In this document: positions 18,027-45,121 of the stretch, piece by piece
Layout of the letters: each line of letters opens with the position of its first letter
Numbering within the stretch: the first letter of the stretch is position 1
NCBI GenBank assembly: GCA_043826565.1
Contig: JBDRPX010000035.1
Coordinates: 31,299-95,298, forward strand
Length of the DNA stretch: 64,000 bases
Reading direction: 5' to 3'
From: Candidatus Omnitrophota bacterium
GTDB taxonomy: Bacteria; Omnitrophota; Gorgyraeia; B26-G9
The notes under the pieces: generated by a model
The model's input: the letters and a program-made list of their open reading frames with translations, nothing else
Told to the model about the DNA's origin: nothing
The model's database searches: none
Position numbers and translations under genes: made by a program

Positions 18027-19691
18027 TTACCTTAACATCGCCTGTATTTCAAAACGCATAACTGTAGACTCACCGATCCGATCACGAAAGGTTTTAATCA
18101 ACTCTACATTTTTAAAATCATCAGCAAAATCAGAATTGTTTTTTAAATTGTTTATTAAATTATTGATAGAAAAGAGCATTTGGTCGCTATCCGCCGCAAA
18201 AGCAACTCCGTTAAGATTTAAAAACTGGCGTATTTCCTTTTTACGAAATGCCGTATCCATCAACCTGGTAAACTCATCTTCGTATCTCTTATCCGCGACA
18301 TCCATATTAGTAGTAAAAAGTCCGGTCAACCAGATATCTTTAGGTAAGACACTGCTGATTTCCTGTAATTTCTGAGCCCAGCTTATCCGGCGCTTAAGCA
18401 GGCCCCGAATGCCGTTCATTTGGTTGTCGAGTGTCGCTCTGGCTGTTTTTAAAGCATCTATTTCATCCATAACTAATGTTAAATCACCGTATTTCTGCTG
18501 CAGCCTGGCTTTATTTGCTTCTTTGATTTTAAGCTGCGTAAGCACCATTATCCAAATACCCACCAGCACAAAAGCTACGGCTCCGGATATGTAAATGTAT
18601 TTTTTGTATTGCCCAAAAAGTTCTACCAGCTTGTTTCTATTAACCTTAGCTTTTGTTGTGGAAAGATTAATATCAAAAGCACGGTGACAAGCAAGCCCCG
18701 CGCAAAGAGCCAACATCTTGGAATTATGCTCCAGATCCGTCTTTTTAAAAACCGCTGGATCGTAAGCTACATTAGCCATCGGATTCCATATTTTGACATT
18801 TAAACCAAGAACATTATGCAGGTATTTATCCACATTCTTAAACATGGTAATTCTACCGCTCAAATAAATCTCTTCAACATTATCTCTGCCCTGACTTTCG
18901 TAAAACTCTATTGTTCTTCTGATCTGGTTTGATAATGCGTTCAATATAAATAGACACAACTCATAAAGATCGTCACTTCCCAACACTCCCTTAAGAGAAC
19001 TAATATTGTTAAAATCTAATTCCATCTCTTTGGGTAAGGCATCTACCAAATTACTCCAGGCGACAAAACCATCTTTGGTAAGGCCGACAATTCTACCTCT
19101 GATAATGTCAACATTAGTAACCTCCATACCCACATTTATAATCGCAATGGTTTTATCCGGAGAAACCTGAGGACCGTTGATATAAAAACAATTCAATAAA
19201 CTGAATGTATCAACCTCTATAAATCCGCACTCATAACCGGCAGAAGTTATCAGACTCGCATAATTCTCAATTAAATCTTTTTTTGCCGCAACCAGGATTA
19301 CCCGGGTTTTTGTTTCCGCGATACTTTTATCTAAAACAGAATAATAATCAAAAACAATATCTTCCATTTTATAATGGACCTGCCGTTCAACCTCAAACTT
19401 CAATGCTTTACGAATTTCCGCATCACCCATTTGCGGCCAATGAATATCACGCACCACGACAGATTCACCGGACACCGAAATATTCACCTTAAATTTTTTT
19501 TTCTTTAACGGAAGTTTTTGGATTACATCTTTAATAGCATTTATAATTCCCTGTCTTCCTTCCCGAAAATTAACCTCGACCATTTCTAATCCAAGTAATT
19601 TATTTTCTTTTTCATTAGACGCAATATAGATAGCCTTAACCAGGCCATCGCCGATCTCCAATCCGACTGACTCTTTGTATTTACTGAACAT
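18027..19691 (-). CDS. pilMN: PilM (actin-like ATPase fold) fused to PilN (TM + coiled-coil periplasmic domain)
   Basis: 554 aa. An N-terminal ~350-aa PilM/FtsA-like region is followed by a TM helix (YISGAVAFVLVGIWIMVLT) and a ~180-aa PilN-like C-terminus. Confidence 0.65.
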   Translation of the reverse strand: MFSKYKESVGLEIGDGLVKAIYIASNEKENKLLGLEMVEVNFREGRQGIINAIKDVIQKLPLKKKKFKVNISVSGESVVVRDIHWPQMGDAEIRKALKFEVERQVHYKMEDIVFDYYSVLDKSIAETKTRVILVAAKKDLIENYASLITSAGYECGFIEVDTFSLLNCFYINGPQVSPDKTIAIINVGMEVTNVDIIRGRIVGLTKDGFVAWSNLVDALPKEMELDFNNISSLKGVLGSDDLYELCLFILNALSNQIRRTIEFYESQGRDNVEEIYLSGRITMFKNVDKYLHNVLGLNVKIWNPMANVAYDPAVFKKTDLEHNSKMLALCAGLACHRAFDINLSTTKAKVNRNKLVELFGQYKKYIYISGAVAFVLVGIWIMVLTQLKIKEANKARLQQKYGDLTLVMDEIDALKTARATLDNQMNGIRGLLKRRISWAQKLQEISSVLPKDIWLTGLFTTNMDVADKRYEDEFTRLMDTAFRKKEIRQFLNLNGVAFAADSDQMLFSINNLINNLKNNSDFADDFKNVELIKTFRDRIGESTVMRFEIQAMLR

Positions 19692-20976
19692 GAAACTCCT
19701 CCGGCTCCGGATAACAAACCCTGTTTCTTCCTTCGTGTTTGGCTTTATAAAGCATTTCGTCAGCTTTTTGAATCAACTGATCCATACCCATGGCTTTATC
19801 TTCCGGGAATTTACGCACGACAACACCGACACTAATCGTAAGCTTAATATGTTTATCACCCTGCATTATAAAATCTTCTTTTTCCACGCTCAGACGTAGA
19901 CGTTCGGCAATAGAGAATTGGTCCCCTTCTTTTTCCGCGAGGCCGGGAAGCACAACAACAAATTCTTCGCCGCCATAACGAGCACAAATATCTGTCATAC
20001 GAATACTCTGACTTAAAATTTGCGCGATTTTTTTCAGAACCATATCTCCGTCCTGATGTCCGTAAGTATCATTAATATTCTTAAAATAATCAATATCAAT
20101 CATCAGCAGGCTCATCGGCAATAACTGACGATTACAAAATTCCAACTCTTCATTTATACGTTTTTGTAAAAATGTACGGTTATAAAGCTGAGTTAACCTA
20201 TCCACAGAAGCAAGCCCGCGATGAATCGCGCTTCCTAAAGCAATCGCTCCTTCAGAAACAAGTAGTAGAAAAAATTCTTCTTCATTTTTAATTCTCATGG
20301 CCGCGCTCTCACCGCAAAAAACTACGATAATACCCCAAACTTCATCTTCAAGCACAAGCGGTATCAAAGCAAGAGCGGAAAGCCGGGCCAGATAAGCCGG
20401 CCGTTCTCCTTTTAGAAAATACGATGTCGCCGCGTCATTTCCAAAAGCATCGCCCCGGTCGGTAAAAATTTTTTTCGTTAACATTACCTTCTTGAGCAAT
20501 TCATCAGACTGCTTATATCGCAGAGCCTTTAACATACTGCGGTCAAAATTACAACCCGTCACATAGTCAAATTCATCAGTTCCCGGATCCTGGCAAAGTA
20601 AAAAACATTGGCTATCTCCCGACATATCGGCAGTGATTTTGGAAAACATATTCACGATCAATCTCAATAACTGATCCTTATTTATTGCGGAAGCAAGATC
20701 CTTCCCGAAATTTCTTAACTGAGCAAATTGCTCACGCTGGCGTTTTTCTTTTCTTCTTATTTCCTGAATAATTTCTTCTTTTTCATTTTGAAAAGACGCG
20801 ACAACTGCTTTTAATTCTTCTTCTACTTTAGAAGCATTGATTTTTAAATAAATTGCCGCGGCTAAAAAAGGCCCGCTAACCAGCAGTAAGGCCCCGCCCA
20901 TTAATGGTTTTATAAATAAAAATGCGATTATGAAAATTATGCCTACTGCCAATAATACAATTAAAAATTTCTGCAT
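19681..20976 (-). CDS. Membrane-anchored GGDEF diguanylate cyclase with a GAF-like sensory region
   Basis: GGEEF active-site motif (ARYGGEEFVVVLPG) with ...IDIDYFKNINDTYGHQDGD...; N-terminal TM helices. Confidence 0.85.
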   Translation of the reverse strand: MQKFLIVLLAVGIIFIIAFLFIKPLMGGALLLVSGPFLAAAIYLKINASKVEEELKAVVASFQNEKEEIIQEIRRKEKRQREQFAQLRNFGKDLASAINKDQLLRLIVNMFSKITADMSGDSQCFLLCQDPGTDEFDYVTGCNFDRSMLKALRYKQSDELLKKVMLTKKIFTDRGDAFGNDAATSYFLKGERPAYLARLSALALIPLVLEDEVWGIIVVFCGESAAMRIKNEEEFFLLLVSEGAIALGSAIHRGLASVDRLTQLYNRTFLQKRINEELEFCNRQLLPMSLLMIDIDYFKNINDTYGHQDGDMVLKKIAQILSQSIRMTDICARYGGEEFVVVLPGLAEKEGDQFSIAERLRLSVEKEDFIMQGDKHIKLTISVGVVVRKFPEDKAMGMDQLIQKADEMLYKAKHEGRNRVCYPEPEEFHVQ

Positions 20977-24141: not shown

Positions 24142-24210
24142 ATCCTAAACCTCATCTTTAATTTCTAATTTAATATTGATAAATATCTAATGTTTTTCCT
24201 ATTCTCTACT

Positions 24211-24262
24211 CTCAATTTTCAATTCTCAATTCTCAATTATCTGCTTATCTGCTTATCTGCTT
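24211..24262. repeat. Short tandem repeats: (T/C)TCAATT x4 followed by ATCTGCTT x3 (the latter overlaps the stop region of the kinase gene)
   Basis: Read directly: ctcaattttcaattctcaattctcaattatctgcttatctgcttatctgctta. Confidence 0.7.
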
Positions 24263-25533
24263 AACGGCAGAAAAACACTAAACGTCGCCCCTTTGCCCGG
24301 AGAGCTGCTTACATCAATATTCCCGCTGTGTTCTTTTATTATACTATAAACTATCGCCAATCCAAGCCCGACCCCTTTATCCTTATCACTGGAAAAAGGT
24401 TCAAACAGGTTTTCTTTCATCCCCTTATTAATACCAATTCCATTATCAATAACATCGATCCTGACCATATTCGTTTCTTTATCAATACTTCCCTTAATCG
24501 TAATCTTTCCCTTTTCTCCCACAGCTTCAACCGCATTAATCAAAAGGTTAAAAAACACTTGTTTCATATGCTGTTCATCGCAGGCTGTCTTGATCTTATC
24601 CACACTGTTTTCTTTTTCTATACTCACCCCGGATTTAAAATCCCGGCTATTTGTAACCAGCGTTACGACATCATCAATTACTTCTCCCAGGGAAACTGTT
24701 TGCATTATTAATTTACGCGGTTTAACATACTCCAGCAGGCTGTTAATTATATTATTCAACCGCGTAGTTTCTTTCATGATCAGACTAAACAGCTTCTGGT
24801 GGTTCCCATCTAAAACTAAAGTCTCACTTAAAGCTTCCACACAACCTGAAATAGACGCCAGAGGATTGCGGATTTCATGGGCGGTACTCGCGGCTAACTT
24901 ACCGATCGCCGAGAGACGGTCTTCTCTTCTGAGTTTTTCTCTTAAAGACTTGACTACTTTATCACGCTTTTTTACCTGACCGGAAATATAGGCGCTTAAG
25001 AACCCGATAACCGAAAAAATCGTAACCCGCAAATACAATAATGAAAACACATATGTGCTTTCATGCTGAGTTATCCCGGCAGCATCAACCGGCAATGGGA
25101 TAATCTCATAAAATTCCAGGCTGACAATTCCGCTATATAATGAGCTTCCTAATAAAGCGATTATTACAGCGGCCCGCGGAGAGATCAGAATACTGGCGGC
25201 AATAGACGAAAGCGGAAAAAGTATATCCAGAACCGATTCAATGCCCCCGGTATAATGAACCAATAAAGTTTCAATTAAAAGATCAATGATTATTTGGGAA
25301 TAAAGAAAAAATTTACTATACTTGCCGCTAAGCAGCAATACCGAGTAGGCAATAGTAATCAGGTATATAATGGCTACAAAAAAATACACCGGGGTTTGGG
25401 CTAAACCGAACAATGCGGTGTTAGCAATTAAAATAACCGTGGCAATCGTAAATCTGAAAATGATGATTTTATATAAATCCGCTTTATTACTTAACATAGA
25501 AACTATTATAAAGAAGGTTCCGGGAAAAGTCAA
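24253..25533 (-). CDS. pilS: Sensor histidine kinase with a polytopic membrane N-terminus (PilS-like, partner of pilR)
   Basis: Six N-terminal TM helices, HisKA (AHEIRNPLASISG), and an HATPase_c domain; 426 aa. Confidence 0.85.
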   Translation of the reverse strand: MTFPGTFFIIVSMLSNKADLYKIIIFRFTIATVILIANTALFGLAQTPVYFFVAIIYLITIAYSVLLLSGKYSKFFLYSQIIIDLLIETLLVHYTGGIESVLDILFPLSSIAASILISPRAAVIIALLGSSLYSGIVSLEFYEIIPLPVDAAGITQHESTYVFSLLYLRVTIFSVIGFLSAYISGQVKKRDKVVKSLREKLRREDRLSAIGKLAASTAHEIRNPLASISGCVEALSETLVLDGNHQKLFSLIMKETTRLNNIINSLLEYVKPRKLIMQTVSLGEVIDDVVTLVTNSRDFKSGVSIEKENSVDKIKTACDEQHMKQVFFNLLINAVEAVGEKGKITIKGSIDKETNMVRIDVIDNGIGINKGMKENLFEPFSSDKDKGVGLGLAIVYSIIKEHSGNIDVSSSPGKGATFSVFLPLSR

Positions 25534-30911: not shown

Positions 30912-33635
30912 TTAGAAATTCTCCTGATAAAAGAAATCACAGGACTCTTCTTTCCATAAAGACTGCGCCCCTCCGAAAAACACATCCGAAGCCGATCTAG
31001 TCGCGGTTTGAAAACGCTTATCATAATTCAAACTCCAAGGAGGTGATTTCGTACCATAATAAACCGTGCCGCTGACATAACGACCGCGGCTGCTGGTCCC
31101 TAACCCGGACTCATAATCCACAAAATCACCGGTAGGCGCGGTAAATTCGCCATCTTTATCCAGCACAAAATACGCGCCGTTTAAATACTTTTTCATGTCC
31201 TTACTGCCATTATTCCAGTTTTCCAGGTTATCGCCTTTTGTCCCGCGGTAACAAGCGATCAGCGTATTGAAAGTATAGTTATCATAAACCCGATTCGGCA
31301 TCATCCCGTAAGTATAATTTTCTCCGCTGTCCGGCCAGGAAAAAGTCGCCGAAGCTGTTCCGGTGGGATCATGCTTATTAAACATCGCGCGGTACGTTCC
31401 GTCTTTTTTATCAATGAGATCTTTTAACTGCTGTTCATTAGCATCGTCAATATTGGTGTAGCGGTCATAAGTCAGGTAATTCAAATAATCCCGGTAAACC
31501 CACTGCCCCCCGCCTGCATCCGGATTTGCTTCTTCATATATTCCGCTGCCTTCGTCTTTCTTAACATAAAGATAAGGATAATCCCGGTAATGCTCAGTTG
31601 CCGGCACTATTTGAGGATCATTAAAATCATCGGATAAAGTAAAAATACGCTTTTTACCGATAATCGCAGAAGTAACCCATTCATCAGTATTAAAATTTCC
31701 CTGCAAATAGATATTTTCCTCTCCTAAGACCGTAAACCCGTAGGAATCCATTTTTCGCGGCAGTTTTTCCGCATTGGTCAGGCGCAAAGGAACCTGGCTG
31801 TAGACAATACCGTTATCCGGAGTTTTCCCTTCTTTTTGCATCCGTCCTAGATTTATCTCCAAGACAACATTCCATTGATTCGTAAATGTATTGATAAATT
31901 TTACTTTACTGGCCACGGGCCGGGCTGTACCGTCATTAAGTTCTGTCACAGCCTTATCAATACTCTTTTCTAAAACCTTCATCCATTCTTCATAATCATT
32001 ATATTTACCGTCAAAATCATCCGCAAGATTAATAAGCAGTCCGCTGCGTTCGGCCATGCGCGCATAAGTAATATCAAATTCCGGCGGCGCCAGATACTCT
32101 CCTCCGGTATTGCCGTCCCGCACAATCCCGTCTAATTTTGATTTCTTTAAAAAAGAATCCCAAGCATCCGGCTGTTTCTCCGAGTTCGTATGCTTAACCG
32201 GTATCTTTCCTCCGGAAGCCCTCTCCGAACCATAAGTGCCGTCTTTAATATCTTCACTCATATTATCCGGCCAATCCTCTGAACCGGAAAGGTCTTTGCC
32301 TATAGCTGTCCAGTACCGCGGATCTTTAAACATATCCCAATATGATTTAGCCTGCGGATGTTCATCCAGTTTAGCGGGATCAACCATTTCTACTGACACG
32401 GGAGTGTGATGCCCACCTCCGGTTATTTCCCAATAAGTATTCTCCACATTCACTTTATTACCGTCATTATCATAAGTGTAAAAATGCAATGGCTGTTCTC
32501 CGGCACCGCTTCGATATCCATAAGCATCGCCTTTATATTTGCTCCAATCCCAGGTCTGATCCATTTCCGCGGGTATCTGGGTCCATTCTCCGGAAATGAT
32601 ATCGCCGCAATCAGTTTCTCCTAAATATGGTTTGACCCAGGTATTATAACCGTTTAAAGGCTCAGAGCTGTCATTTATAATTGATGAGCTTACCCGGTTA
32701 TCTCTGTTCCCGGGATTAATATTATTATAATCAAGCATATCTCCGTAAAAATACCATTCCGTACTCCGAAAAGCACTGGTCAGCCAAGTACTAGTGCTCC
32801 CGAAATAACTCGCGTTACTCTGATAATTCCAATGCCGGTCACCATATTTATCCCAGTAATAATAACCAAAATCACCGGGATTATCTTTAGCATCATCACG
32901 AAAAATATCATTCGGACGGTCAAGCCGGACCATCGGCGCCATACCGTCTTTTACTCCGTCATAATTATCCGCGTAATATGGAGCCGGGTACTGGTCAGAA
33001 GCCGCGTAATAAATGACCCCGTTTTCTCCGGCACTTAATTCTGAAATATTTTCCAATCTTACCGGATTATCAATCCGGATATTGCCGTTGGTATGGATAC
33101 CTCCGCCGTAAAGCTTTGGGAAATTACCCACCTCATTATCGAGATCCATATCATAAGGACTGTAAAAGAAAAAATCATATATACCCTGGCGGCTGAGCGT
33201 ATAGGTGATCACGCGCCGGTTTTCCCCCTCAATGCCCATGGCGACAATAACTGTCTCATCTTCGTCATCCCGGTTTGGATATGCTTTAACCATGAATTTT
33301 CCGTCATTAGACTGATAATATCCGTTAGCATCAAAAGAGCAATCCGCTCTTAAGAGCTGGCCATAACTGCTGTCTCCGGGAGCCAGCTTAAGGAGTTTAT
33401 CTTCATCATTATTCCATTTATGCGTATACCACTGCCATCCGTAATTTTGTGATTCATAATAAGCATAAGCTACGCCCATTTCCGCATAACCAAGCGCTTT
33501 TTTCCCTCCGGACTCGCGGGCTATACTTTTCTGTTCCGTGATCACAAATGTACACAGAGAGCTGGCCACAACAATAATAATAAACAATACCAGATATGTC
33601 GCAATAAGCATTGTACCTTTATTATTTATCTTCAT
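30912..33635 (-). CDS. Giant (907 aa) GspK/PilX-like pseudopilin paralog
   Basis: N-terminus NKGTMLIATYLVLFIIIVVASSLCTFVITEQK. Many collinear conserved blocks with 26307-29132 (GWQWYTHKWN, APYYADNYDGVKDG, KQPxAWxxFLxKxKLD, YGFTVLxEENIYLxG, SDDFNDPQ, YGMMxN). Confidence 0.55.
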   Translation of the reverse strand: MKINNKGTMLIATYLVLFIIIVVASSLCTFVITEQKSIARESGGKKALGYAEMGVAYAYYESQNYGWQWYTHKWNNDEDKLLKLAPGDSSYGQLLRADCSFDANGYYQSNDGKFMVKAYPNRDDEDETVIVAMGIEGENRRVITYTLSRQGIYDFFFYSPYDMDLDNEVGNFPKLYGGGIHTNGNIRIDNPVRLENISELSAGENGVIYYAASDQYPAPYYADNYDGVKDGMAPMVRLDRPNDIFRDDAKDNPGDFGYYYWDKYGDRHWNYQSNASYFGSTSTWLTSAFRSTEWYFYGDMLDYNNINPGNRDNRVSSSIINDSSEPLNGYNTWVKPYLGETDCGDIISGEWTQIPAEMDQTWDWSKYKGDAYGYRSGAGEQPLHFYTYDNDGNKVNVENTYWEITGGGHHTPVSVEMVDPAKLDEHPQAKSYWDMFKDPRYWTAIGKDLSGSEDWPDNMSEDIKDGTYGSERASGGKIPVKHTNSEKQPDAWDSFLKKSKLDGIVRDGNTGGEYLAPPEFDITYARMAERSGLLINLADDFDGKYNDYEEWMKVLEKSIDKAVTELNDGTARPVASKVKFINTFTNQWNVVLEINLGRMQKEGKTPDNGIVYSQVPLRLTNAEKLPRKMDSYGFTVLGEENIYLQGNFNTDEWVTSAIIGKKRIFTLSDDFNDPQIVPATEHYRDYPYLYVKKDEGSGIYEEANPDAGGGQWVYRDYLNYLTYDRYTNIDDANEQQLKDLIDKKDGTYRAMFNKHDPTGTASATFSWPDSGENYTYGMMPNRVYDNYTFNTLIACYRGTKGDNLENWNNGSKDMKKYLNGAYFVLDKDGEFTAPTGDFVDYESGLGTSSRGRYVSGTVYYGTKSPPWSLNYDKRFQTATRSASDVFFGGAQSLWKEESCDFFYQENF

Positions 33636-35180: not shown

Positions 35181-36395
35181 TTATCCGATAAGTTCTGTAA
35201 TTTTGAAAATCGGCAGAAACATCGCCACAACAATACCGCCGACAACAATACCCAAAAAAGCAATAATCAGCGGCTCAATCAAGCTGGTAAGGCCGCTTAC
35301 CGCCGCATCAACCTGATCTTCATAAAAATCAGCGATCTTACTTAACATTTTTTCCAGCTCTCCGGATTCCTCCCCAACTGAAATCATTCGGGTCACCATC
35401 GGAGGAAAAGCACGGCTCTTCGCCAAAGGCGTGGAAATACTTTCTCCTTCAAGAATACCAGCACGAGCTTTATCCACAGCGCCTTCAATTACGCTATTTC
35501 CGGCAGTCTTGCCGACAATTTCCAAAGCACCCAAAATAGGCACACCGCTGCGTATTAATGTTGCTAGCGTTCGGGAAAAACGCGCTACCGCCACTTTTCT
35601 TAACAATGGACCGAACACCGGCATATTAAGTTTAAGCTGGTCTATCTTTACCCGGCCTACGGGTGTCTTAATAAATTTGGCAATAACAAAAACAAAACCC
35701 GCCAGACCAATAACAACATATATAAAATAATATCTAAGAGTATCGGAAACATTAATCAGCAGCTGCGTAGGAGCAGGCAATGCGCCGCCTAAAGATTCAA
35801 ATATCTCCTTAAAAGTCGGAATAACTTTCAGCAGTAATACCAGGGTAATACCAATAGCCATACAGGAAACTACACTCGGATAGACCATTGCCGATTTTAC
35901 TTTACGCACGAGTTGAGTATTTTTTTCCAGGTACCCGGCAAGCCTGTCGAGAATTTCATCAAGCATACCGCTGGTTTCTCCGGCTTTGACCATATTCGTA
36001 TATAATAGGGTAAAAACCCGGGGATGTTTCTCCAATGCCGCGGATAGACTTGATCCGGATTCTACATCCTGCCTTACCTTAGTTATAACCGCACGTAAAA
36101 CTGGGCTTTCCATCTGTTCACTAAGAATGTCCAGACTTTGCACTAAAGGAATACCCGCGTTTACCATCGTGGCCAGCTGTCGGGAAAAAATTACCAGCTC
36201 CTCGGATTTGACTGATTTTTTTCCCATGGATTTTGCCTCGGCTGCTGCTTTCCCCGATTTTTCCTCTGTAACAGAAATGATAATCAGATTTTTAACACGC
36301 AGCATGTCCAAGGCTATAGATTTATCTTTAGCCTCAATCACATCCGTAACTGTATTACCTTCCTCATCTTTAGCGGTATACTTAAAAAATGGCAT
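35181..36395 (-). CDS. pilC: Type IV pilus inner-membrane platform protein PilC (GspF family)
   Basis: Two GspF repeats and three TM segments; 404 aa. Confidence 0.9.
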   Translation of the reverse strand: MPFFKYTAKDEEGNTVTDVIEAKDKSIALDMLRVKNLIIISVTEEKSGKAAAEAKSMGKKSVKSEELVIFSRQLATMVNAGIPLVQSLDILSEQMESPVLRAVITKVRQDVESGSSLSAALEKHPRVFTLLYTNMVKAGETSGMLDEILDRLAGYLEKNTQLVRKVKSAMVYPSVVSCMAIGITLVLLLKVIPTFKEIFESLGGALPAPTQLLINVSDTLRYYFIYVVIGLAGFVFVIAKFIKTPVGRVKIDQLKLNMPVFGPLLRKVAVARFSRTLATLIRSGVPILGALEIVGKTAGNSVIEGAVDKARAGILEGESISTPLAKSRAFPPMVTRMISVGEESGELEKMLSKIADFYEDQVDAAVSGLTSLIEPLIIAFLGIVVGGIVVAMFLPIFKITELIG

Positions 36396-36607: not shown

Positions 36608-38332
36608 TTATTCTGAAGAGGTCACCCGTAAAACTTCTTCTAATGTAGTTTTCCCTTCCAAAAAATTATGTATCCCGGCCCCACGTAAAGTAACCATGCC
36701 CACTTCTTTTTTAGCATAGCGTTTAATCTCATCGCTGGAACATCGTTTCATGATCATCTCCCGGATATCATCATTAAGTAATAAAATTTCAATCATCGCA
36801 AAACGCCCGCGATATCCTCCGGTGCATTTATTGCATCCTTTCCCTTTATACACAGTTAATTCTTCGGATTTTTTATCAATCTCCATCCGATCCAGCACTG
36901 ACTGAGGTACCTTATACGCCTCTTTACAATGAGAACAAACTTTACGGGCAAGCCTTTGCGCAACTACAGCCACAACACTCGAAGCAATTAAAAACGGTTC
37001 AATACCCATATCAATAAGTCTGGTTACCGCTCCCGGCGCGTCATTAGTATGGAGAGTACTTAAAAGCATTGCTCCGGTTAATGCCGCTTTAATCGCGATA
37101 TCACCTGTTTCAAAGTCTCTGATTTCTCCCACCATTAGAACATCCGGATTCTGCCTTAAAATCGATCTTAGCCCGGAGGAAAAAGTAAGTCCGATATCCG
37201 GTTTAACCTGTACCTGGGTAATTCCTTCAACCTGATATTCAACCGGATCTTCGACGGTAATAATATTTTTTTCCGGAGTATTAAGTTTATTTAAAACAGA
37301 ATACAAAGTCGTTGATTTCCCGCTTCCGGTAGGCCCGGTAACCAGGATCATGCCATACGGCCGGGTAATCGCGTAGTTAAAATCTTCCAGTGCTTTTGGC
37401 AGGAATCCTAAGGCTTCCAATCCAATGCTTAAATTGGATTTATCCAAAGCCCGCATAACAACTTTTTCCCCAAAACTGATCGGCAGGACAGAAACACGAA
37501 AATCAACTTCTTTTTGCGCGAATCTGACTTTAAACCTGCCGTCCTGAGGAATATGCCGCTGCGTAATATCCAGATTTGACATTATTTTTAAGCGTGCGGC
37601 AATAGCGTTCTGTATTTTTTTCGGCAAAATCGCGGCTTCGTGCAATGCTCCGTCAATTCTATATCTAACTCTAATATTATGTTCATACGGTTCAATATGT
37701 ATATCCGAAGCTTCTTTGATCAGGGATTCGGCGATTAAAGCATCGATCATCTTAACAATCGGAGCTTCTTCACTGGAACGGATTACATCACCGATATCAA
37801 CCTGGTCGTGCTGCTGAACCACTTCGATATCGTCTTCAGTCATATTCTTAACTAAATCATCAATTGACTGATTAAGCTTTTTCTGCGCCTCCACCCCTCC
37901 CGGATGATATAATCTATCTATGGTCGAAGTAACCGCACTCACGGTACAGACAGCCGGAGCCACATCATAGCCGGTAAGCGCTTTTATATCATCTATGGCT
38001 AATACATTTGATGGGTCACTCATGGCAATGCTCAGCATACTTCCAATCCTGGAGATAGCTAAGAGCTGGTAATGACGGGCTACATGTTCCGGGATTATCT
38101 TAACCGCTTTTTCCGCAGCATTAAACTTAGTAAGGTCAATTAGCGGCACATGCAGATATTTACAAAAACAAATCGCGATATTTTCTTCGGTTGTGAATTT
38201 ATTTTCTACTAATATAGTCGCTAACTGTCCGCCTTTCTTTTGCTGAATATTCAAGGCTTCATTGAGTGTTTTTTCGTCAATAAGATTGTGCTCTATTAGT
38301 AGTTCATTAAGTCTTTTTTTTACTCTACGCAT
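36608..38332 (-). CDS. pilB: Type IV pilus assembly ATPase PilB/GspE with an N-terminal MshEN (GspE-N) domain and tetracysteine motif
   Basis: N-terminal RLNELLIEHNLIDEKTLNEALNIQ (MshEN), Walker A GPTGSGKSTT, and CSHC...CNKC zinc site; 574 aa. Confidence 0.9.
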   Translation of the reverse strand: MRRVKKRLNELLIEHNLIDEKTLNEALNIQQKKGGQLATILVENKFTTEENIAICFCKYLHVPLIDLTKFNAAEKAVKIIPEHVARHYQLLAISRIGSMLSIAMSDPSNVLAIDDIKALTGYDVAPAVCTVSAVTSTIDRLYHPGGVEAQKKLNQSIDDLVKNMTEDDIEVVQQHDQVDIGDVIRSSEEAPIVKMIDALIAESLIKEASDIHIEPYEHNIRVRYRIDGALHEAAILPKKIQNAIAARLKIMSNLDITQRHIPQDGRFKVRFAQKEVDFRVSVLPISFGEKVVMRALDKSNLSIGLEALGFLPKALEDFNYAITRPYGMILVTGPTGSGKSTTLYSVLNKLNTPEKNIITVEDPVEYQVEGITQVQVKPDIGLTFSSGLRSILRQNPDVLMVGEIRDFETGDIAIKAALTGAMLLSTLHTNDAPGAVTRLIDMGIEPFLIASSVVAVVAQRLARKVCSHCKEAYKVPQSVLDRMEIDKKSEELTVYKGKGCNKCTGGYRGRFAMIEILLLNDDIREMIMKRCSSDEIKRYAKKEVGMVTLRGAGIHNFLEGKTTLEEVLRVTSSE

Positions 38333-38343
38333 TCATTATTCCT

Positions 38344-40059
38344 TTAATCATCCGCAGTTAAACGGGTGATCTCTTCTAAACTTGTAAGCCCTTTCAGTGC
38401 TTTAATAACACCGTTTTCCCGTAAAGTGGTCATTCCTTCCTCTCGCGCTTTTTTCTTGATGATCCCTTCCTGGGCTTTTTGCATAACCAAGTCCCGGATA
38501 TCCGGAGTAAAAATCAAAACCTCACATAAACCGAGTCTTCCCCGATAACCGGTATTACTACATTTAGCACATCCTTTAGGTTTGAATAACTCTTTAGCAT
38601 CCTCGTTAATAAAAAATCTTTTTCTTATCTCCGGGGTTATCTCATATGCTTCTTTACAATTATCACAAAGTTTTCGGATCAATCTCTGGGCACATACCAA
38701 TAAGCACGAGGAAGTGATCAGAAACGGTTCAATACCCATATTTACCATTCTGGTTACCGCTCCGGAAGCTTCCGTCGTATGTAATGTGCTTAAAACTAAA
38801 TGCCCGGTAAGAGCAGCTTTAATCGCGATATCCAGAGTTTCTGTATCACGAATTTCACCGACCATAATGATATCCGGGTCCTGACGTAAAAATGATCGTA
38901 AAGCACCGCTAAAAGTAAGCCCGATCTCCGGGTTAACACTAACCTGATTAATTCCCGGCAATTGGTATTCAACCGGATCCTCTGCGGTAACCAGATTTAG
39001 TTCCGGATTATCCACATATTTTAAAACCGAATACAAAGTAGTCGATTTTCCGCTTCCGGTCGGCCCGACAACAAGGATCATTCCATGCGGTTCCTGCGCA
39101 AGGGTCTTAACTCTTTGTATTGTTTCAACCTCAAAACCTAAAGCGTCCAAATCAAGAATTACCGTAGTCTTATCTAATATACGCAAAGCAATTTTCTCTC
39201 CGTGGGTGCACGGCATAATCGAAACACGAAAATCAATTTCCCGGTCACCGATTTTAATTTTAAAACGGCCGTCTTGCGGTAAACGATGTTCCGCTATATT
39301 TAAAGTGGACATGACTTTAATCCGGGAAATAATCGCGTCCTGCATATGTACCGGCGGTGCCGGAAATTCCTGTAGAATTCCATCGAGGCGATAACGTATC
39401 CGCAGGCGTTTTTCCTGCGGTTCAATTAAAACATCGCTCGCTTTGTGTTTAATCGCTTCCGCAAGAAGCATATTCGTAACTTTTACAACCGGAGTATCTT
39501 CAACTTGAGCAAGAAGTTGTTTTTCACTAAGCTGCCTATCTTCAGAAGCACCTTCATCCTGAAATATTTGGATATCCATGTCCTTTACATCATCAATAAT
39601 TGCTCTCATCTGATCATCCGATGACCCGCTATAATGTTTTTCAATTGCTTCCTTAAGCTCCTTTTCAGCCGCAATAACAACTTTCAGCTGATAATTGGTA
39701 AGCACTTTAAGTTCATCAATAGCCAGGACATTAAGCGGGTCGACCATGGCGACTGTTAAAACTTTTCCAATTTTAGAAATCGCAATCGCCAGATATTTTT
39801 CCGCCAGCTGCCGGGGAATGATCTGAACCACATCCTGATTTATTTTGAACTTAGCAAGGTTGATCGGGGGGATATTCAAACTTTGACTTAATACAATTAC
39901 CAAGTCACGCTGACTAATATAACCCATTGTCGTCAGGACTTCACTTAAACGCCGTCCCGTTTCTTTTTGCAAAGCAATAGCTTCCTCAAGCTGCTCCTTT
40001 GTTAAGAAATTAGAGCGGGTTAAAACCTCCAGCATTTTGTCTTTAATACCTTGAACCAT
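38344..40059 (-). CDS. Second PilB/GspE-family ATPase paralog with an N-terminal MshEN domain
   Basis: KMLEVLTRSNFLTKEQLEEAIALQ, GPTGSGKSTT, and CDNC...CAKC; 571 aa. Confidence 0.88.
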   Translation of the reverse strand: MVQGIKDKMLEVLTRSNFLTKEQLEEAIALQKETGRRLSEVLTTMGYISQRDLVIVLSQSLNIPPINLAKFKINQDVVQIIPRQLAEKYLAIAISKIGKVLTVAMVDPLNVLAIDELKVLTNYQLKVVIAAEKELKEAIEKHYSGSSDDQMRAIIDDVKDMDIQIFQDEGASEDRQLSEKQLLAQVEDTPVVKVTNMLLAEAIKHKASDVLIEPQEKRLRIRYRLDGILQEFPAPPVHMQDAIISRIKVMSTLNIAEHRLPQDGRFKIKIGDREIDFRVSIMPCTHGEKIALRILDKTTVILDLDALGFEVETIQRVKTLAQEPHGMILVVGPTGSGKSTTLYSVLKYVDNPELNLVTAEDPVEYQLPGINQVSVNPEIGLTFSGALRSFLRQDPDIIMVGEIRDTETLDIAIKAALTGHLVLSTLHTTEASGAVTRMVNMGIEPFLITSSCLLVCAQRLIRKLCDNCKEAYEITPEIRKRFFINEDAKELFKPKGCAKCSNTGYRGRLGLCEVLIFTPDIRDLVMQKAQEGIIKKKAREEGMTTLRENGVIKALKGLTSLEEITRLTADD

Positions 40060-40077: not shown

Positions 40078-40698
40078 CTATTTCGGCTCATAATACTGGG
40101 CGATAGCATTATTAATATCCGAAAAGGTAGAAATAAACGTCTCAACATCAAGTCCGGTAATCTGTTTTATTTCTTCTTTCGCAGCAGAGTTAAGAGGATC
40201 AGCCATGGCAACAGTAAGAATGTTGCCAATTTTATCGATCGGGATAAGATTGTATTTCTGAGCAATATCTTTTGAAATAATTTTTACTAATTCGGTTTCA
40301 ATTTCATAATTTTCCAACTGTAAATAAGGAAATCCGTATTGAGTCACCATAGTACTCACAAGGTCTTCTTCCGAAAGGTAACCCATTTCGATAATTAGTT
40401 GAAATAAAGATCCTCCCTTTTTAGTTTGCATCTCCAACGCTTTATCTAACTGCTCCTGGGTAATAATGCCGATATCCAACAGAATGTTTTCCAGTTTCTG
40501 CGCTGTATGCGTCTGCTCATAAATACTTTCCTCTATCTGCTCCGAAGTAACATACTTAAGTTTGACTAAAATCTGACCGACTAAACCACCTTCCTGAAGC
40601 TGAACTTCCAGAGCTTTTTCCAATTGCTCCTGGGTGATCAGATTCTTCTCGATCAAAAGTTGTCCGATTTGTTTCTTTTTATTTTTTTTCAATTCCAA
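40078..40698 (-). CDS. Stand-alone protein made of two MshEN (GspE N-terminal, c-di-GMP-binding type) domains with no ATPase domain
   Basis: Two copies of the MshEN consensus: QIGQLLIEKNLITQEQLEKALEVQ and KLENILLDIGIITQEQLDKALEMQ; 206 aa. Confidence 0.65.
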   Translation of the reverse strand: MELKKNKKKQIGQLLIEKNLITQEQLEKALEVQLQEGGLVGQILVKLKYVTSEQIEESIYEQTHTAQKLENILLDIGIITQEQLDKALEMQTKKGGSLFQLIIEMGYLSEEDLVSTMVTQYGFPYLQLENYEIETELVKIISKDIAQKYNLIPIDKIGNILTVAMADPLNSAAKEEIKQITGLDVETFISTFSDINNAIAQYYEPK

Positions 40699-40702
40699 CC
40701 AC

Positions 40703-41767
40703 CTATCGTTTAAACAAACGAATTAAATCATCCGGATCCGTAGAACGGGATATCGCGTCCTCATAAGCAATTAATTTACGTGTATATAACTCATAAAGGG
40801 CCTGATTCATAGTCTGCATCCCTTCTTTTTGTCCGGTTTGAATCAGTGAATAAATCTGATGAACTTTTTGTTCTCTGATCATACTTTTTACAGCCGGAGT
40901 AGCCACCATAACCTCAGCACCAAGTACCCGTCCGAATCCACCAACTTTAGGAACCAACTGCTGAGAAAGAATTCCCACCATTACAAAGGAAAGCTGAGTT
41001 CTAACCTGCTGCTGCTGATGCGAAGGAAAAACGTCAATAATTCGGTTTACTGTTTGCACCGCGTCAGAAGTGTGTAATGTGGCAAACACTAAGTGCCCTG
41101 TTTCCGCAATTGTTAATGCCGCCTCAATTGTTTCTAAGTCGCGCATTTCGCCGACCAGAATAACATCCGGGTCTTGTCTAAGAATATGTTTAAGAGCTAA
41201 ACCAAATGATTTTGTATCCTGCCCTATCTCCCGCTGATCCACAACCGACATCTTATTTGCATGTACAAATTCTATCGGGTCCTCTACCGTTATAATATGA
41301 CAAGCCCTATCTTCATTTACTTTATCCACAATAGATGCCAAGGTAGTTGATTTACCACTACCCGTAGCTCCGGTAACCAAAACCAGCCCTTTGGGTTTTC
41401 GGGAAAGTTCTGTAACAACCTTCACCGGTAACCCGCATTCGGTAAAGCTTAAAATCTTAAACGGAATAGCCCGGATAGCCGTTCCGACAAAACTGCGTTG
41501 AAAAAACACATTCATACGAAAACGGCTTAAACCTTCAATTTCAAAAGACCGGTCAAGTTCCCTGTTTGTCTCAAACTTCGCAATTTCTTCCGGGCTGAGC
41601 ACCGCATAAATAATGTCTTTGACCTCTCCCGGAGAAAGTGACGGCATATCCAGTGGAACCATTTTTTCATCAATACGCATATGCGGAGGCGTATGCGCGC
41701 CTAAATGCAGATCCGAGGCATTGCGCTCAATTAGAATCCTCAATAATTGGGATAAATCAGCACCCAT
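40703..41767 (-). CDS. pilT: Twitching-motility retraction ATPase PilT
   Basis: Walker A GATGSGKSTT, and C-terminal GMQTMNQALYELY (PilT signature); 354 aa. Confidence 0.9.
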   Translation of the reverse strand: MGADLSQLLRILIERNASDLHLGAHTPPHMRIDEKMVPLDMPSLSPGEVKDIIYAVLSPEEIAKFETNRELDRSFEIEGLSRFRMNVFFQRSFVGTAIRAIPFKILSFTECGLPVKVVTELSRKPKGLVLVTGATGSGKSTTLASIVDKVNEDRACHIITVEDPIEFVHANKMSVVDQREIGQDTKSFGLALKHILRQDPDVILVGEMRDLETIEAALTIAETGHLVFATLHTSDAVQTVNRIIDVFPSHQQQQVRTQLSFVMVGILSQQLVPKVGGFGRVLGAEVMVATPAVKSMIREQKVHQIYSLIQTGQKEGMQTMNQALYELYTRKLIAYEDAISRSTDPDDLIRLFKR

Positions 41768-42188
41768 GCTCGTCCTCTCTTCCTTCTGTTTTTTGTAATC
41801 CTTTATGTATTCTTAACGCGGTATGGATTAATCGCGCGGCTTCCTCGAACCCTTTTTCTTTGGCAAAGAAACCGGAAATTCCCAGTTTAGTCGCCTCCTT
41901 CATGCTTTCCATCGTTCCGAAAGCGCTAAAAATCACAACCGGTATTTTCTTGTCGATTTCCCGGACTTGTTTAAGTATCTCTATTCCGCTTAGCCCGGGG
42001 AGCTTTAAATCCAGAAAAATTATATTGTATTTATTAGCCCGGATCTGCTCAATAACTTTTTCTCCGCTATAAAGCACATCCGCATCAAATTCCCGGCTTT
42101 TTAGCCAGAATTGCATCATGTTAATAAAATCCATCTCATCATCAATTAACAATACTTTAATTTTTTCATCCATAACAAACCCCATCAT
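41757..42188 (-). CDS. Single-domain response-regulator receiver (CheY-like)
   Basis: VLLIDDE...FLDLKLPGLSGIE...FFAKE; REC domain only, 143 aa. Confidence 0.8.
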   Translation of the reverse strand: MMGFVMDEKIKVLLIDDEMDFINMMQFWLKSREFDADVLYSGEKVIEQIRANKYNIIFLDLKLPGLSGIEILKQVREIDKKIPVVIFSAFGTMESMKEATKLGISGFFAKEKGFEEAARLIHTALRIHKGLQKTEGREDEHGC

Positions 42189-42205: not shown

Positions 42206-43321
42206 TTACGTACTGCTGTGCTTAAAAAACCGTTTAAAATCATCGTGATCAGTAACATGCAAAGCCGCTTCCTGGTAACTAATTAACCCCTGTTTATATA
42301 ATTCAAAAAGTGACTGATTCATCGTCTTCATTCCATCTTTTTGTCCAGTCTGGATCAAAGAAAAAATTTGATGGATCTTTTCTTCTCTAATCATCGCCCG
42401 GATACCAAAATTAGAAATCATTATCTCTACCGCAAGAGCTCTTCCATTTTCATCAGAACGCGGTATCAACTGCTGAGAAACAGTTGCCAGCAGCACAAAT
42501 GATAATTGGGTACGTACCTGCGATTGCTGCGACGCGGGGAAAACATCGATAATTCTGTTAATTGTCTGTACACAATCAGATGTGTGCAGCGTAGCAAAAA
42601 CAAGATGTCCGGTTTCCGCAATATTTAATGCCGCCTGAATCGTCTCCACATCCCGCATTTCTCCGATAAGAATAACATCAGGGTCTTGCCTTAAAACATA
42701 TTTCAGCGCTCCGCTATAAGAATCGGTATCCGTACCGATTTCTCTTTGTGATACAAGACTTTTTTTGTTCAAATGCACAAATTCTACAGGATCCTCTACC
42801 GTAACAATATGGCAATGCCTCTCGGAGTTTATATGATCAATCATCGCGGAGAGTGTTGTTGTTTTTCCTACCCCGGTAGCCCCGGTAACCAGAACCAACC
42901 CCCTTTGACTTCTACAGATTTGTAAAAATTGCTCTTCCGGTAATCCTAAAGCTCTAAACCCGGAGATTTCCTTAGGAATAACGCGCAGGGAAGCACAAAC
43001 TGCCCGACGATGATAAAACACATTAACCCGAAATCTGCCGATATCACCAAGATCATACGATTTATCAAGCTCTTTTTTATCTTCAAACTGTTTTATTTCG
43101 TCAGTAGTTAATAATAAATAAATCATTGTTTTACAATCATCTTCAGTTAAGCTAGGATATTCGAGCTTCACTAATTTGGAATCAACTCTGATTTGCGGGG
43201 GGCTATCTACGTGGATATGCAGATCCGATGCTCTTCTCTCCACCATAATTTTAGCAAGTGTTTCTATCTTTAAAGTCATTTCAAGTCCTTTTTTTATACC
43301 GGCTAAATTGCTTTCAGGCAA
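42206..43321 (-). CDS. Second PilT/PilU-family retraction ATPase
   Basis: GATGVGKTTT, and GMKTMNQSLFELYKQGLISYQEA; 371 aa. Confidence 0.88.
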   Translation of the reverse strand: MPESNLAGIKKGLEMTLKIETLAKIMVERRASDLHIHVDSPPQIRVDSKLVKLEYPSLTEDDCKTMIYLLLTTDEIKQFEDKKELDKSYDLGDIGRFRVNVFYHRRAVCASLRVIPKEISGFRALGLPEEQFLQICRSQRGLVLVTGATGVGKTTTLSAMIDHINSERHCHIVTVEDPVEFVHLNKKSLVSQREIGTDTDSYSGALKYVLRQDPDVILIGEMRDVETIQAALNIAETGHLVFATLHTSDCVQTINRIIDVFPASQQSQVRTQLSFVLLATVSQQLIPRSDENGRALAVEIMISNFGIRAMIREEKIHQIFSLIQTGQKDGMKTMNQSLFELYKQGLISYQEAALHVTDHDDFKRFFKHSST

Positions 43322-43402: not shown

Positions 43403-45121
43403 TTAAATGCCGGATTTTCGCAAGGCATCACGAAGAACCTCACTAGGAATTCCGCAATCTATATACTCCCAGGGTAAATCCTGGGAAATATCTCTCTTTT
43501 GGCAAACATATTGCCGAGGATCAATATCATGTTCTTTAAAAGCTTCCTGCCAGAGAGCAAAGTTAAATGATTCTGACCAGGCATCAAAACGGGCTCCTGA
43601 TGTATACGCTTTAAAAATCACCTTATGTAACTGACGGTCTCCCCGGGTTAAATATGCCTCGAGAAAACTCATTCTCACATCATGAAAACTAACTTTTAAA
43701 TTCTTAGCGGAAAGCCGAGACCTAAGATATTGTTGTTTAGCCGCCAGCTCCTCCGGAGTATTCATTCCCAACCATTGAAAGGGTGTATGTGCTTTGGGAA
43801 TAAAATTCGATATGCTTACATTTATCTGTCCGAGTCTTGAGTCAACAGATTTTCTCAAATAAGTGAATTCCTTCACCAGACTAACAATATTCTCCAAATC
43901 CTCATTGTCTTCGGTCGGCAGGCCGATCATAAAATATAATTTTAATTTTTTCCACCCTATTTTATGCGCGGCAAGAACAGCATCTTTTAATGACTGAATA
44001 TCAATATTTTTATTAATAAGTTTTCGTAAACGCTCACTGCCTGCCTCAGGAGCAAATGTTAACCCGGTTTTTTTTAAATCACCTATCATCGCCAGAATTT
44101 CCGAAAAATCCTTATCGATCCGCAAAGACGGCAGGGAAATCCCTAATCCTCTTTCCCGGCAAAATGAGTGCATTTGGGTGATCAGCTTTTTGAGATTTGG
44201 ATAATTCGCGCTGGAAAGCGCGCAAAAAGCAATTTTTTCAAAACCTGTGTTTCGATATGTTTTCTTGGCAAGCTCCAATACTTTATCCACACTGCGCATG
44301 CGCACAGGATTTATCGTAAATCCGGCCTGGCAAAAATAACATTGGTTTGGACATCCCCGCATTATTTCCAGGCTTATCCGGTCATGAATCACTTCAACAA
44401 ACGGCACCGGCGGCGCTGTAGGAACTTCCGTTTCTTCAAAATTTTCAACATATCGTCTGGTTATACGCTTGGGCGTTTCTGTAAACGTCGGGACATAAAC
44501 ACCTTCAATTTTCGCCAATTCACGCAGTAGTTTTTCTCTTTGACTTAAACTTTCTGCTTCAGGTAAATCCTCAAAAGATTTTTTAAACTCACGGCATTTA
44601 TTCACCAATTCAATAATTACTTCCTCTGCTTCTCCAATCACAAAAACATCAATAAACTCAGCCATAGGCTCAGGATTATAACAACAAGGACCGCCGGCTA
44701 TGACAATCGGCAATCCGGCTCTGTCCTTTGCATAGATGGGAATACCGCCAAGTTCAAGCATATTCAATACATTGGTAAATCCAAGCTCATACTGCAAAGA
44801 AAAACCCAGAACATCAAAATCTGAGAGCGGTCTTTGACTTTCCAGACTAAGTAAAGGAAGATTACGTTTGCGCATTAACTCTTCCATATCCAACCACGGA
44901 GCAAAACATCGCTGGCAGAACACTTCTTCCTGTTTATTTAAAATATGGTAAAGAACTTTAATCCCCAAATGACTCATTCCGACTTCATAAGCATCGGGGA
45001 AACATAAAACAATATTAAATGTATTGCTGTTTATTTTTTTAACGACACTATTAAACTCCCGGCCGATATATCTAGCCGGCTTTCTCACTTCCAGTAAATA
45101 GTCTTCTGTATTTTCTTCCAT
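43403..45121 (-). CDS. B12-binding-domain radical SAM protein (uncharacterised family)
   Basis: CPNQCYFCQAG (CxxxCxxC) radical-SAM cluster motif and an N-terminal cobalamin-binding-like domain; 572 aa. Confidence 0.75.
   Translation of the reverse strand: MEENTEDYLLEVRKPARYIGREFNSVVKKINSNTFNIVLCFPDAYEVGMSHLGIKVLYHILNKQEEVFCQRCFAPWLDMEELMRKRNLPLLSLESQRPLSDFDVLGFSLQYELGFTNVLNMLELGGIPIYAKDRAGLPIVIAGGPCCYNPEPMAEFIDVFVIGEAEEVIIELVNKCREFKKSFEDLPEAESLSQREKLLRELAKIEGVYVPTFTETPKRITRRYVENFEETEVPTAPPVPFVEVIHDRISLEIMRGCPNQCYFCQAGFTINPVRMRSVDKVLELAKKTYRNTGFEKIAFCALSSANYPNLKKLITQMHSFCRERGLGISLPSLRIDKDFSEILAMIGDLKKTGLTFAPEAGSERLRKLINKNIDIQSLKDAVLAAHKIGWKKLKLYFMIGLPTEDNEDLENIVSLVKEFTYLRKSVDSRLGQINVSISNFIPKAHTPFQWLGMNTPEELAAKQQYLRSRLSAKNLKVSFHDVRMSFLEAYLTRGDRQLHKVIFKAYTSGARFDAWSESFNFALWQEAFKEHDIDPRQYVCQKRDISQDLPWEYIDCGIPSEVLRDALRKSGI

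Follow-up and report, generated by a model that had tools for sequence, protein, structure and literature searches.

MshEN is one of the few widespread receptor domains for cyclic di-GMP (c-di-GMP), and it has been studied nearly always as the cis-acting N-terminus of an ATPase. Here we describe a stand-alone MshEN protein, given the working name X, which is encoded at 40078-40698 on the minus strand within a type IV pilus operon of Candidatus Omnitrophota bacterium (GenBank assembly GCA_043826565.1). The DNA that was analyzed, hereafter the window, is a stretch of 64,000 nucleotides of contig JBDRPX010000035.1 (positions 31,299 to 95,298 of the forward strand). With moderate confidence, and on grounds of sequence comparison, we read X as a c-di-GMP sensor or adaptor that acts in trans for the motors of the type IV pilus. 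This reading is the best supported because of the motif preserved in the first module of X, the place of the gene upstream of two tandem genes for the extension ATPase PilB, the GGDEF and HD-GYP genes found near it in relatives, and the degenerate motifs of the PilBs themselves. An original prediction, made from the DNA letters, had proposed a c-di-GMP adaptor or competitor for the extension ATPases; the adaptor half is the one that we favor, and the competitor half is retained below only as an improbable rival.

The MshEN consensus motif, RLGxx(L/V/I)(L/V/I)xxG(L/V/I)(L/V/I)xxxxLxxxLxxQ, is present twice in the domain (PMC5013675). In MshE of Vibrio cholerae, the substitution G11L at motif position 3 abolishes c-di-GMP binding, and G40I, at the same position of the second motif, weakens it 72-fold (PMC5013675); the importance of the position-3 glycine has since been confirmed (PMC12002112). 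The arginine at position 1 is dispensable, and leucine or lysine in its place gives nanomolar affinity (PMC11731258). For example, the GSPII-B unit of Thermus thermophilus PilF, whose motifs begin with KLG and LLG (written below as KLG/LLG), binds c-di-GMP at 6 nM and its K167L variant at 2 nM (PMC11731258), and the consensus at position 1 has been extended to R/K/L (Neissner et al. 2024, PMC11731258). The GSPII-A unit of PilF (RLG/SLA) is a non-binder, in which the residue at position 3 blocks the pocket and the wider context matters too (PMC12002112).

ATPases with several fused MshEN units, (MshEN)2-4-T2SSE, exist in other phyla according to the literature. MshEN proteins that are free of an ATPase have also been listed: PA3740 of Pseudomonas aeruginosa, with the architecture MshEN-xT2SSE_N1, binds c-di-GMP with a dissociation constant of ~30 nM (Wang et al. 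2016, PMC5013675 Suppl. Tables 4 and 6), and cce_1044 of Cyanothece sp. ATCC 51142 occurs as a free protein of the type (MshEN_N)2 (Wang et al. 2016, PMC5013675 supplement). The original prediction knew of no described stand-alone example, which these two entries contradict. [quoted passage not shown] Prior descriptions exist of the MshEN domain, of MshEN_N modules in tandem and of MshEN proteins that lack an ATPase. Among the work on Omnitrophota PilB and c-di-GMP in the searchable literature nothing was found on X, and three features are undescribed there: an intact MshEN_N module followed by a degenerate MshEN domain, a fixed place in Omnitrophota pilus operons, and a systematic contrast with degenerate PilBs.

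The gene and its reading frame

The open reading frame (ORF) lies exactly where it was predicted, at 40078..40698, and is on the minus strand, which had not been specified. It comprises 206 aa from a TTG at 40698 to a TAG stop codon at 40078-40080. The listed start has the sequence AGGTGG only 4 nt before it; AGGTGG overlaps the TAG stop of the preceding pilT, so that this stop codon overlaps the ribosome-binding site of X. An alternative TTG at 40692 lies 6 nt downstream of the same AGGTGG Shine-Dalgarno sequence, and the 204-aa product that it would give shows 100% identity to P0001, an NCBI protein that the protein search found in a metagenome-assembled genome (MAG) of Candidatus Omnitrophota. 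Because of this spacing, of P0001 and of the conserved length of the family, the true start is likely the TTG at 40692; the predicted length of 206 aa describes the ORF, and the likely product has 204 aa. Module and domain boundaries are numbered below on the 206-aa ORF, and the structural model and conserved residues (such as G10 and G39) on the 204-aa protein.

As predicted, X stands between genes for the retraction ATPase PilT (40703..41767, minus strand; TIGR01420, 481.7 bits) and for PilB. The first of the two extension ATPases, PilB1 (38344..40059, minus strand; TIGR02538, 646 bits), begins 18 nt after X behind its own GAGG, and it is followed by its tandem paralog PilB2 (36608..38332, minus strand; TIGR02538, 652 bits). 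PilB1 and PilB2 (571 and 574 aa; 36608-40059, minus strand) are both full length. X and pilB1 are in the same frame, with TAG and TGA as in-frame stops between them. A read-through X-PilB1 fusion was rejected on account of these two stops and of the gap in relatives, which ranges from -79 to +155 nt. We regard the gene as genuine, given an ORF exact at its coordinates and a short length kept across dozens of species.

Domain architecture and predicted structure

Two MshEN_N modules and one T2SSE_N1 domain account for the whole of the 204-aa protein, with no fused catalytic or output domain. Scored separately against NF053729, the NCBIfam model of the c-di-GMP motif (cutoff 38 bits), module 1 (aa 10-62; 40513..40671, minus strand) reaches 59.1 bits (E 2.6e-16) and module 2 (aa 68-120; 40339..40497, minus strand) 49.1 bits (E 3.5e-13); on the whole of X the model gives these two matches with a total of 93.9 bits. 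Each module is made of two 24-residue motifs and a 5-residue spacer, 53 residues altogether, with a motif spacing of exactly 29 in both, and X holds four motif copies in all. Module 1 consists of motif I QIGQLLIEKNLITQEQLEKALEVQ, the spacer LQEGG and motif II LVGQILVKLKYVTSEQIEESIYEQ; module 2 consists of motif I KLENILLDIGIITQEQLDKALEMQ, the spacer TKKGG and motif II SLFQLIIEMGYLSEEDLVSTMVTQ. Aligned with one another, the modules share 37% identity (E 2e-10).

The remainder is an alpha-beta domain, T2SSE_N1 or MshEN_C (aa 121-204; 40087..40338, minus strand), which matches Pfam PF05157 at 74.2 bits. The architecture is therefore (MshEN_N)2-T2SSE_N1, i.e., an extra MshEN_N bundle before one complete MshEN domain. 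The two repeats of the original prediction correspond to the two modules, with the corrections that each is a pair of motifs, that the modules are not equivalent, and that the C-terminal T2SSE_N1 domain had been missed. It had also proposed PF05157 as a check. The match is indeed found, but this model, now named 'MshEN', matches only aa 121-204; since it covers only the T2SSE_N1 part rather than the c-di-GMP motifs, its match is uninformative on c-di-GMP binding. The predicted lack of an ATPase domain was borne out, as a Pfam scan of X gave no T2SSE match (PF00437), for which PilB1 and PilB2 score 468 and 451 bits, and TIGR02538 matched X only over model positions 2-137 of 564, with a score of 94.9 bits where the cutoff is 675.

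The same scan placed FumaraseC_C (PF10415; 35 bits, cutoff 32.5) and DUF4388 (23 bits) on the first MshEN_N helix, aa 7-36, and these labels also occur in precomputed annotations of many members of the X family. Both identities were set aside, as they look like cross-hits to a helical motif.

An AlphaFold2 model of X, built on an alignment of 68 sequences, has a mean pLDDT of 86.5 and consists of four-helix bundles at 9-64 and 67-119 followed by an alpha/beta domain. The helices of module 1 are 9-15, 21-34, 38-44 and 50-64, and the N1 domain has strands at 149-155, 158-163 and 182-187 with pLDDT >90. In a Foldseek search, the top match was Thermus PilF GSPII-A (TM score 0.78, root-mean-square deviation 1.9 Å), which is also by sequence the closest solved relative of aa 68-203 (71.5 bits). 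Other matches were MshE with c-di-GMP (5HTL), PilF GSPII-B with c-di-GMP, X. citri PilB-Nt with PilZ (7LKM-O is among the fold matches) and XpsE-Nt; E values for 5HTL, 8PDK and 9G1W were 6e-9 to 5e-7. The last domain of X matched the N1E-GspL complexes 2bh1 and 4pht. This N1 domain of X is homologous to the N1 domains of GspE and PilB; it is likely the part that docks.

State of the c-di-GMP motifs

The score of a hidden Markov model was discarded as a predictor of binding: the cutoff of NF053729 is passed by all four N-terminal modules of the locus (the two of X and those of PilB1 and PilB2), and residue-level criteria were used instead. By these, module 1 (QIG/LVG) retains the position-3 glycine and the position-24 glutamine in both motifs together with the hydrophobic positions, and it is a predicted c-di-GMP site and a plausible binder. 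Module 2 (KLE/SLF) has glutamate and phenylalanine in place of the two glycines. Because both glycines are lost and the best match is the non-binding GSPII-A, module 2 is probably a non-binding, structural module. Glutamine is found at position 24 in all four motifs of X. At position 1, motif II of module 1 has leucine, within R/K/L, and motif I has glutamine, outside it; module 2 has lysine and serine. Across the X family, position 1 of motif I may be Q, P, H, K, L or R, always preceded by an invariant lysine.

These features allow X to be placed among the described systems. With the MshEN domain of V. cholerae MshE (5HTL), X shares the fold of an MshEN_N bundle plus MshEN_C/T2SSE_N1 and the 24+5+24 layout, and module 1 shares the position-3 glycines, the hydrophobic positions and both terminal glutamines (G11, G40, Q32 and Q61 in MshE). 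MshE differs in being the N-terminus of an ATPase, in having no extra module, and in having arginine at position 1 of both motifs, where X has glutamine and leucine. T. thermophilus PilF (9G1W, 8PDK) likewise has tandem MshEN-type units, one a binder (GSPII-B) and the other a non-binding landing pad (GSPII-A). Module 1 of X resembles GSPII-B, which binds without an arginine, at motif II, and module 2 plus N1 has its best match in GSPII-A by both sequence and fold. In PilF, however, the units are fused to the ATPase in the order non-binder then binder, whereas X is a free protein with a predicted binder first and a predicted non-binder second, and its module 1 has no N1 subdomain of its own.

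The likeness to PA3740 and cce_1044 is drawn from their described architectures; the top relatives of X are all Omnitrophota. PA3740 is like X in standing alone without an ATPase domain, and it has been linked to surface motility (PMC5013675). It differs in its single module, its highly diverged N1 and its beta-/gammaproteobacterial distribution, and it has not been reported to be pilB-adjacent. The protein cce_1044 shares with X its free state, its two tandem MshEN_N modules and its want of an ATPase; unlike X, it is cyanobacterial, has no T2SSE_N1 and keeps the position-3 glycine in all motifs (PLG/RLG and SLG/RIG). Finally, the FimX-PilZ-PilB system of X. citri shares the functional logic proposed here, a separate receptor serving a motif-less PilB. 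It uses unrelated folds, those of a PilZ adaptor and of a degenerate GGDEF-EAL receptor, and X would be receptor and adaptor in one MshEN-type protein.

The X family and its contrast with neighboring PilBs

The protein search returned ~42 clusters of 202-206 aa at 56-100% identity to X and a far larger set of 145-150-aa relatives, in which the named matches were all Omnitrophota or MAGs of the Planctomycetes-Verrucomicrobia-Chlamydiae (PVC) group. Among GTDB species representatives, a scan picked up 563 related stretches, and the best 80 of the 563 were nearly all labeled Omnitrophota. The family is present in at least 85 Omnitrophota loci, the majority with a single-module form of ~149 aa. 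This form aligns to module 1 over its N-terminal half and to module 2 at its C-terminal end, which points to the 204-aa form as the result of an internal duplication of ~58 residues. Current database labels for members of the family are 'hypothetical protein' or a miscalled 'PilB'.

The alignment of 68 relatives shows no variation at K7, L13, G36, L37 and G39, and conservation of G10 is at least 90%. Within the double-module clade, the majority fraction is 0.77 for module 1, 0.78 for N1 and 0.67 for module 2, and the KLE/no-glycine pattern of module 2 is kept. A few forms of 212-221 aa have two intact modules, e.g., QLG/LIG plus LIG/LIG.

A motif census was taken over 87 loci with 89 X-family ORFs and 136 adjacent full-length PilBs. 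The position-3 glycine stands in both motifs of 86/89 X-family ORFs, the other three being edge-truncated ORFs or PilB fragments, and the position-24 glutamine is found in 84/89 for motif I and 88/89 for motif II. In the PilBs that adjoin X, both glycines are kept in 0/136 and neither in 120/136, and the final glutamine of motif II is present in only 14/133. The PilBs of the window follow this pattern, with degenerate motifs KML/RLS in PilB1 and RLN/QLA in PilB2. The difference between 86/89 and 0/136 suggests that a ligand site has been maintained specifically in X, and this contrast is the strongest comparative argument for such a site, suggestive rather than decisive. The original prediction had both PilBs starting with MshEN domains; N-terminal MshEN-like regions are indeed seen in both, although these genes lie downstream of X, and not upstream, in the order of transcription. 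Module 2 and N1 of X are together 32-35% identical to these N-terminal regions.

Genomic context in relatives

Genomic context was counted in 85 non-redundant loci. Of the loci that show the gene directly downstream of X, 79/81 have pilB there; pilB-pilB directly follows X in 66/69, and X-pilB gaps are mostly of -4 to +90 nt. Two arrangements occur. The order in single-module loci is rodA - radical SAM - HAMP/GAF/GGDEF - (pilT) - X - pilB - pilB - (REC-HD-GYP) - pilC, where REC is a receiver domain; in double-module loci, the clade of the window, it is rodA - PAS histidine kinase - radical SAM - (pilT) - REC - pilT - X - pilB - pilB - pilC. A GGDEF gene lies within 2 genes upstream of X in 61/68 single-module loci, and a REC-HD-GYP gene lies between pilB2 and pilC in 15/43, e.g., L003 at 11928-12992; the HD-GYP protein of this locus, the sole one inspected, has an intact HD...GYP motif. 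REC-PilT precedes X in 10/12 of the double-module loci that show upstream genes.

The upstream GGDEF neighbor is a HAMP-GAF-GGDEF membrane protein, e.g., at L003 6575-7975 and L006 5489-6940, and in many of L015-L086. Its role may be that of a partner of X in sensing or scaffolding.

No Rosetta-stone fusions of X and PilB were found in related loci. PilB ORFs of at least 590 aa were considered as possible fusions and rejected; they are artefacts of upstream start-codon calling and contain no extra modules.

Proposed role and alternative explanations

As a sensor or adaptor in trans, X would be the detached regulatory N-terminus of a PilB-type motor, made as its own polypeptide. Binding of c-di-GMP would take place at module 1; its motif II starts with leucine, and so does that of GSPII-B, which binds at 6 nM. 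Module 2, with its degenerate motifs, and N1, similar to the 'landing pad' GSPII-A, would dock X on the N-terminal domain of PilB1 or PilB2, or else on the PilM/PilC platform, which the N1 domain of PilB itself uses. This docking is proposed on the precedent of N1E-GspL and on the view that the PilB N1D touches the stator (PMC11656802). X and PilB would then reproduce in trans the single-chain, multi-MshEN ATPases of other phyla, and the existence of those fused proteins makes a physical association of X and PilB plausible. In this way, one sensor could serve two motor paralogs and link the balance of pilus extension and retraction to the level of c-di-GMP. From the behavior of MshE and PilB in other bacteria, we lean toward high c-di-GMP stimulating extension through X.

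A wider scenario is only tentative. In Omnitrophota, c-di-GMP sensing may have shifted off the extension ATPase to a separate MshEN protein that serves two PilBs in trans, as a split PilF-like motor; the clade of the window would have added a degenerate module and swapped the degenerate HAMP-GAF-GGDEF protein for a histidine kinase, REC and an extra PilT, so that X would integrate c-di-GMP and a phosphorelay to choose between extension and retraction motors.

If the role proposed for X is correct, X and the PilBs with decayed sites would form a natural split system for probing how MshEN/N1 communicates with the motor and platform, a matter of which the field sees its understanding as poor (PMC11656802). 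It would likewise open a first way into pilus control by c-di-GMP in Omnitrophota, a phylum still uncultivated whose pili are believed to be important for lifestyle. In practical terms the yield is modest, namely a corrected annotation along with a hypothesis that can be tested.

Several points weigh against X as a c-di-GMP sensor. Degenerate MshEN motifs are common in the PilBs of other phyla as well, so that the complementarity of X and PilB is suggestive only. In module 1, the glutamine at position 1 of motif I lies outside both R/K/L and the relaxed [RKPN] of Wang, and position 10 is asparagine or lysine and not glycine. A restored consensus in Thermus GSPII-A may still not bind, owing to the N-cap and to inter-subdomain contacts (PMC12002112). 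The double-module clade, to which X belongs, has no GGDEF/HD-GYP neighbors and carries instead a histidine kinase, REC and an extra PilT. In the single-module loci, the GGDEF signature is degenerate (GDDEF, GDNEF, RDDKF) in ~59/63, ~4/63 having GG[DE]EF, and no RxxD I-site was found among the 63 syntenic GGDEF domains examined. With such degenerate active sites, these neighbors are no evidence for local c-di-GMP synthesis, and the candidate argument that they prove it was weakened accordingly; from their sequences, a part as sensors or scaffolds suits the syntenic GGDEF proteins better than one as cyclases.

The alternative that survives best, although we consider it unlikely, is that X works independently of c-di-GMP as a structural accessory, serving as a landing pad or assembly cofactor that scaffolds the PilBs (or PilT) or places them at the PilM/PilC platform. 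Its precedent is the role proposed for the non-binding Thermus PilF GSPII-A, which is the closest solved relative of aa 68-203 in both sequence and fold (71.5 bits; TM score 0.78, 1.9 Å), and the loss of both glycines from module 2 agrees with it, as do three of the points just made: the off-consensus glutamine that opens motif I of module 1, the insufficiency of a consensus motif for binding, and the absence of GGDEF/HD-GYP neighbors in the double-module clade. A purely structural role nevertheless leaves unexplained why glycine 3 and glutamine 24 of module 1 are near-invariant in relatives at 41-75% identity when module 2 and the 136 PilBs have drifted, and it gives no reason for the GGDEF/HD-GYP genes that are syntenic with the single-module orthologs.

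Less probable still is a decoy or competitive inhibitor, in which the free N1 of X would fill the PilM (GspL-like) site of the PilB N1 and block extension, with or without control by c-di-GMP. X does have a normal T2SSE_N1 and, with module 2, resembles the PilB1/2 N-termini at 32-35% identity; N1E-GspL complexes are among its fold matches, the PilB N1D is believed to make contact with the stator (PMC11656802), and X lies between pilT and pilB in many loci. In characterized systems, however, MshEN-bound c-di-GMP promotes pilus assembly, and the apparent translational coupling and co-transcription of X with the motors fit a stoichiometric subunit better than an inhibitor.

That X is a mere gene fragment, the leftover N-terminus of a frameshifted or truncated pilB, is practically refuted, and the original prediction, too, saw no such frameshift: its homology to PilB N-termini (the TIGR02538 match at positions 2-137) and the frame it shares with pilB1 are outweighed by a full-length downstream PilB with its own N-terminus, two in-frame stops between the genes, a length of 145-215 aa and a gene position kept in at least 85 loci, strong residue conservation and a confident AlphaFold2 model.

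Other genes of the window

The minus-strand order of the operon is pilT-like, REC, pilT, X, pilB1, pilB2, pilC and the pilin genes. Upstream of the pilT that adjoins X, a single-domain response regulator (REC; 41757..42188, minus strand; PF00072, 81 bits) stands between the two PilT genes, the second PilT-like ATPase being at 42206..43321 (minus strand; PF00437, 151 bits). The platform protein PilC (35181..36395, minus strand; PF00482, 224 bits) is next in the operon after PilB2. A gene with Radical_SAM_N2 and Radical_SAM domains is located at 43403-45121 (minus strand), and almost every related locus has such a gene, with the pilus motor genes on one side of it and rodA or the histidine kinase on the other.

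The GspL-like platform protein PilM, of 554 aa, is encoded at 18027..19691 (minus strand; PF11104, 106 bits). It is unusually long, as the PilM_2 domain spans only aa 38-336 of 554. Since N1E-GspL structures are among the fold matches of X, PilM is, by analogy, a candidate docking partner of N1 domains. Next to it, at 19681..20976 (minus strand), is a canonical diguanylate cyclase, recognized by PF00990 (159.9 bits) and, in an active-site alignment, by an RMTD I-site and GGEEF. The cyclase gene overlaps the start of pilM by 11 nt and lies 19 kb from X. This overlap suggests a c-di-GMP source co-translated with the pilus platform, and the GGEEF cyclase is a possible source of the signal of X.

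A PilS-like histidine kinase (6TM_PilS) and a PilR-like sigma-54 response regulator are encoded at 22789-25533 (minus strand), between the pilin cluster and the GGDEF-pilM pair. Inside the pilin cluster, there are two very large ORFs, one of 907 aa (30912-33635, minus strand) with a hydrophobic N-terminus and one of 941 aa (26307-29132, minus strand) with no Pfam match; both may be giant minor pilins or tip proteins. All plausible genes of the 64-kb window are on the minus strand, and the plus-strand ORFs are short and overlap minus-strand ORFs.

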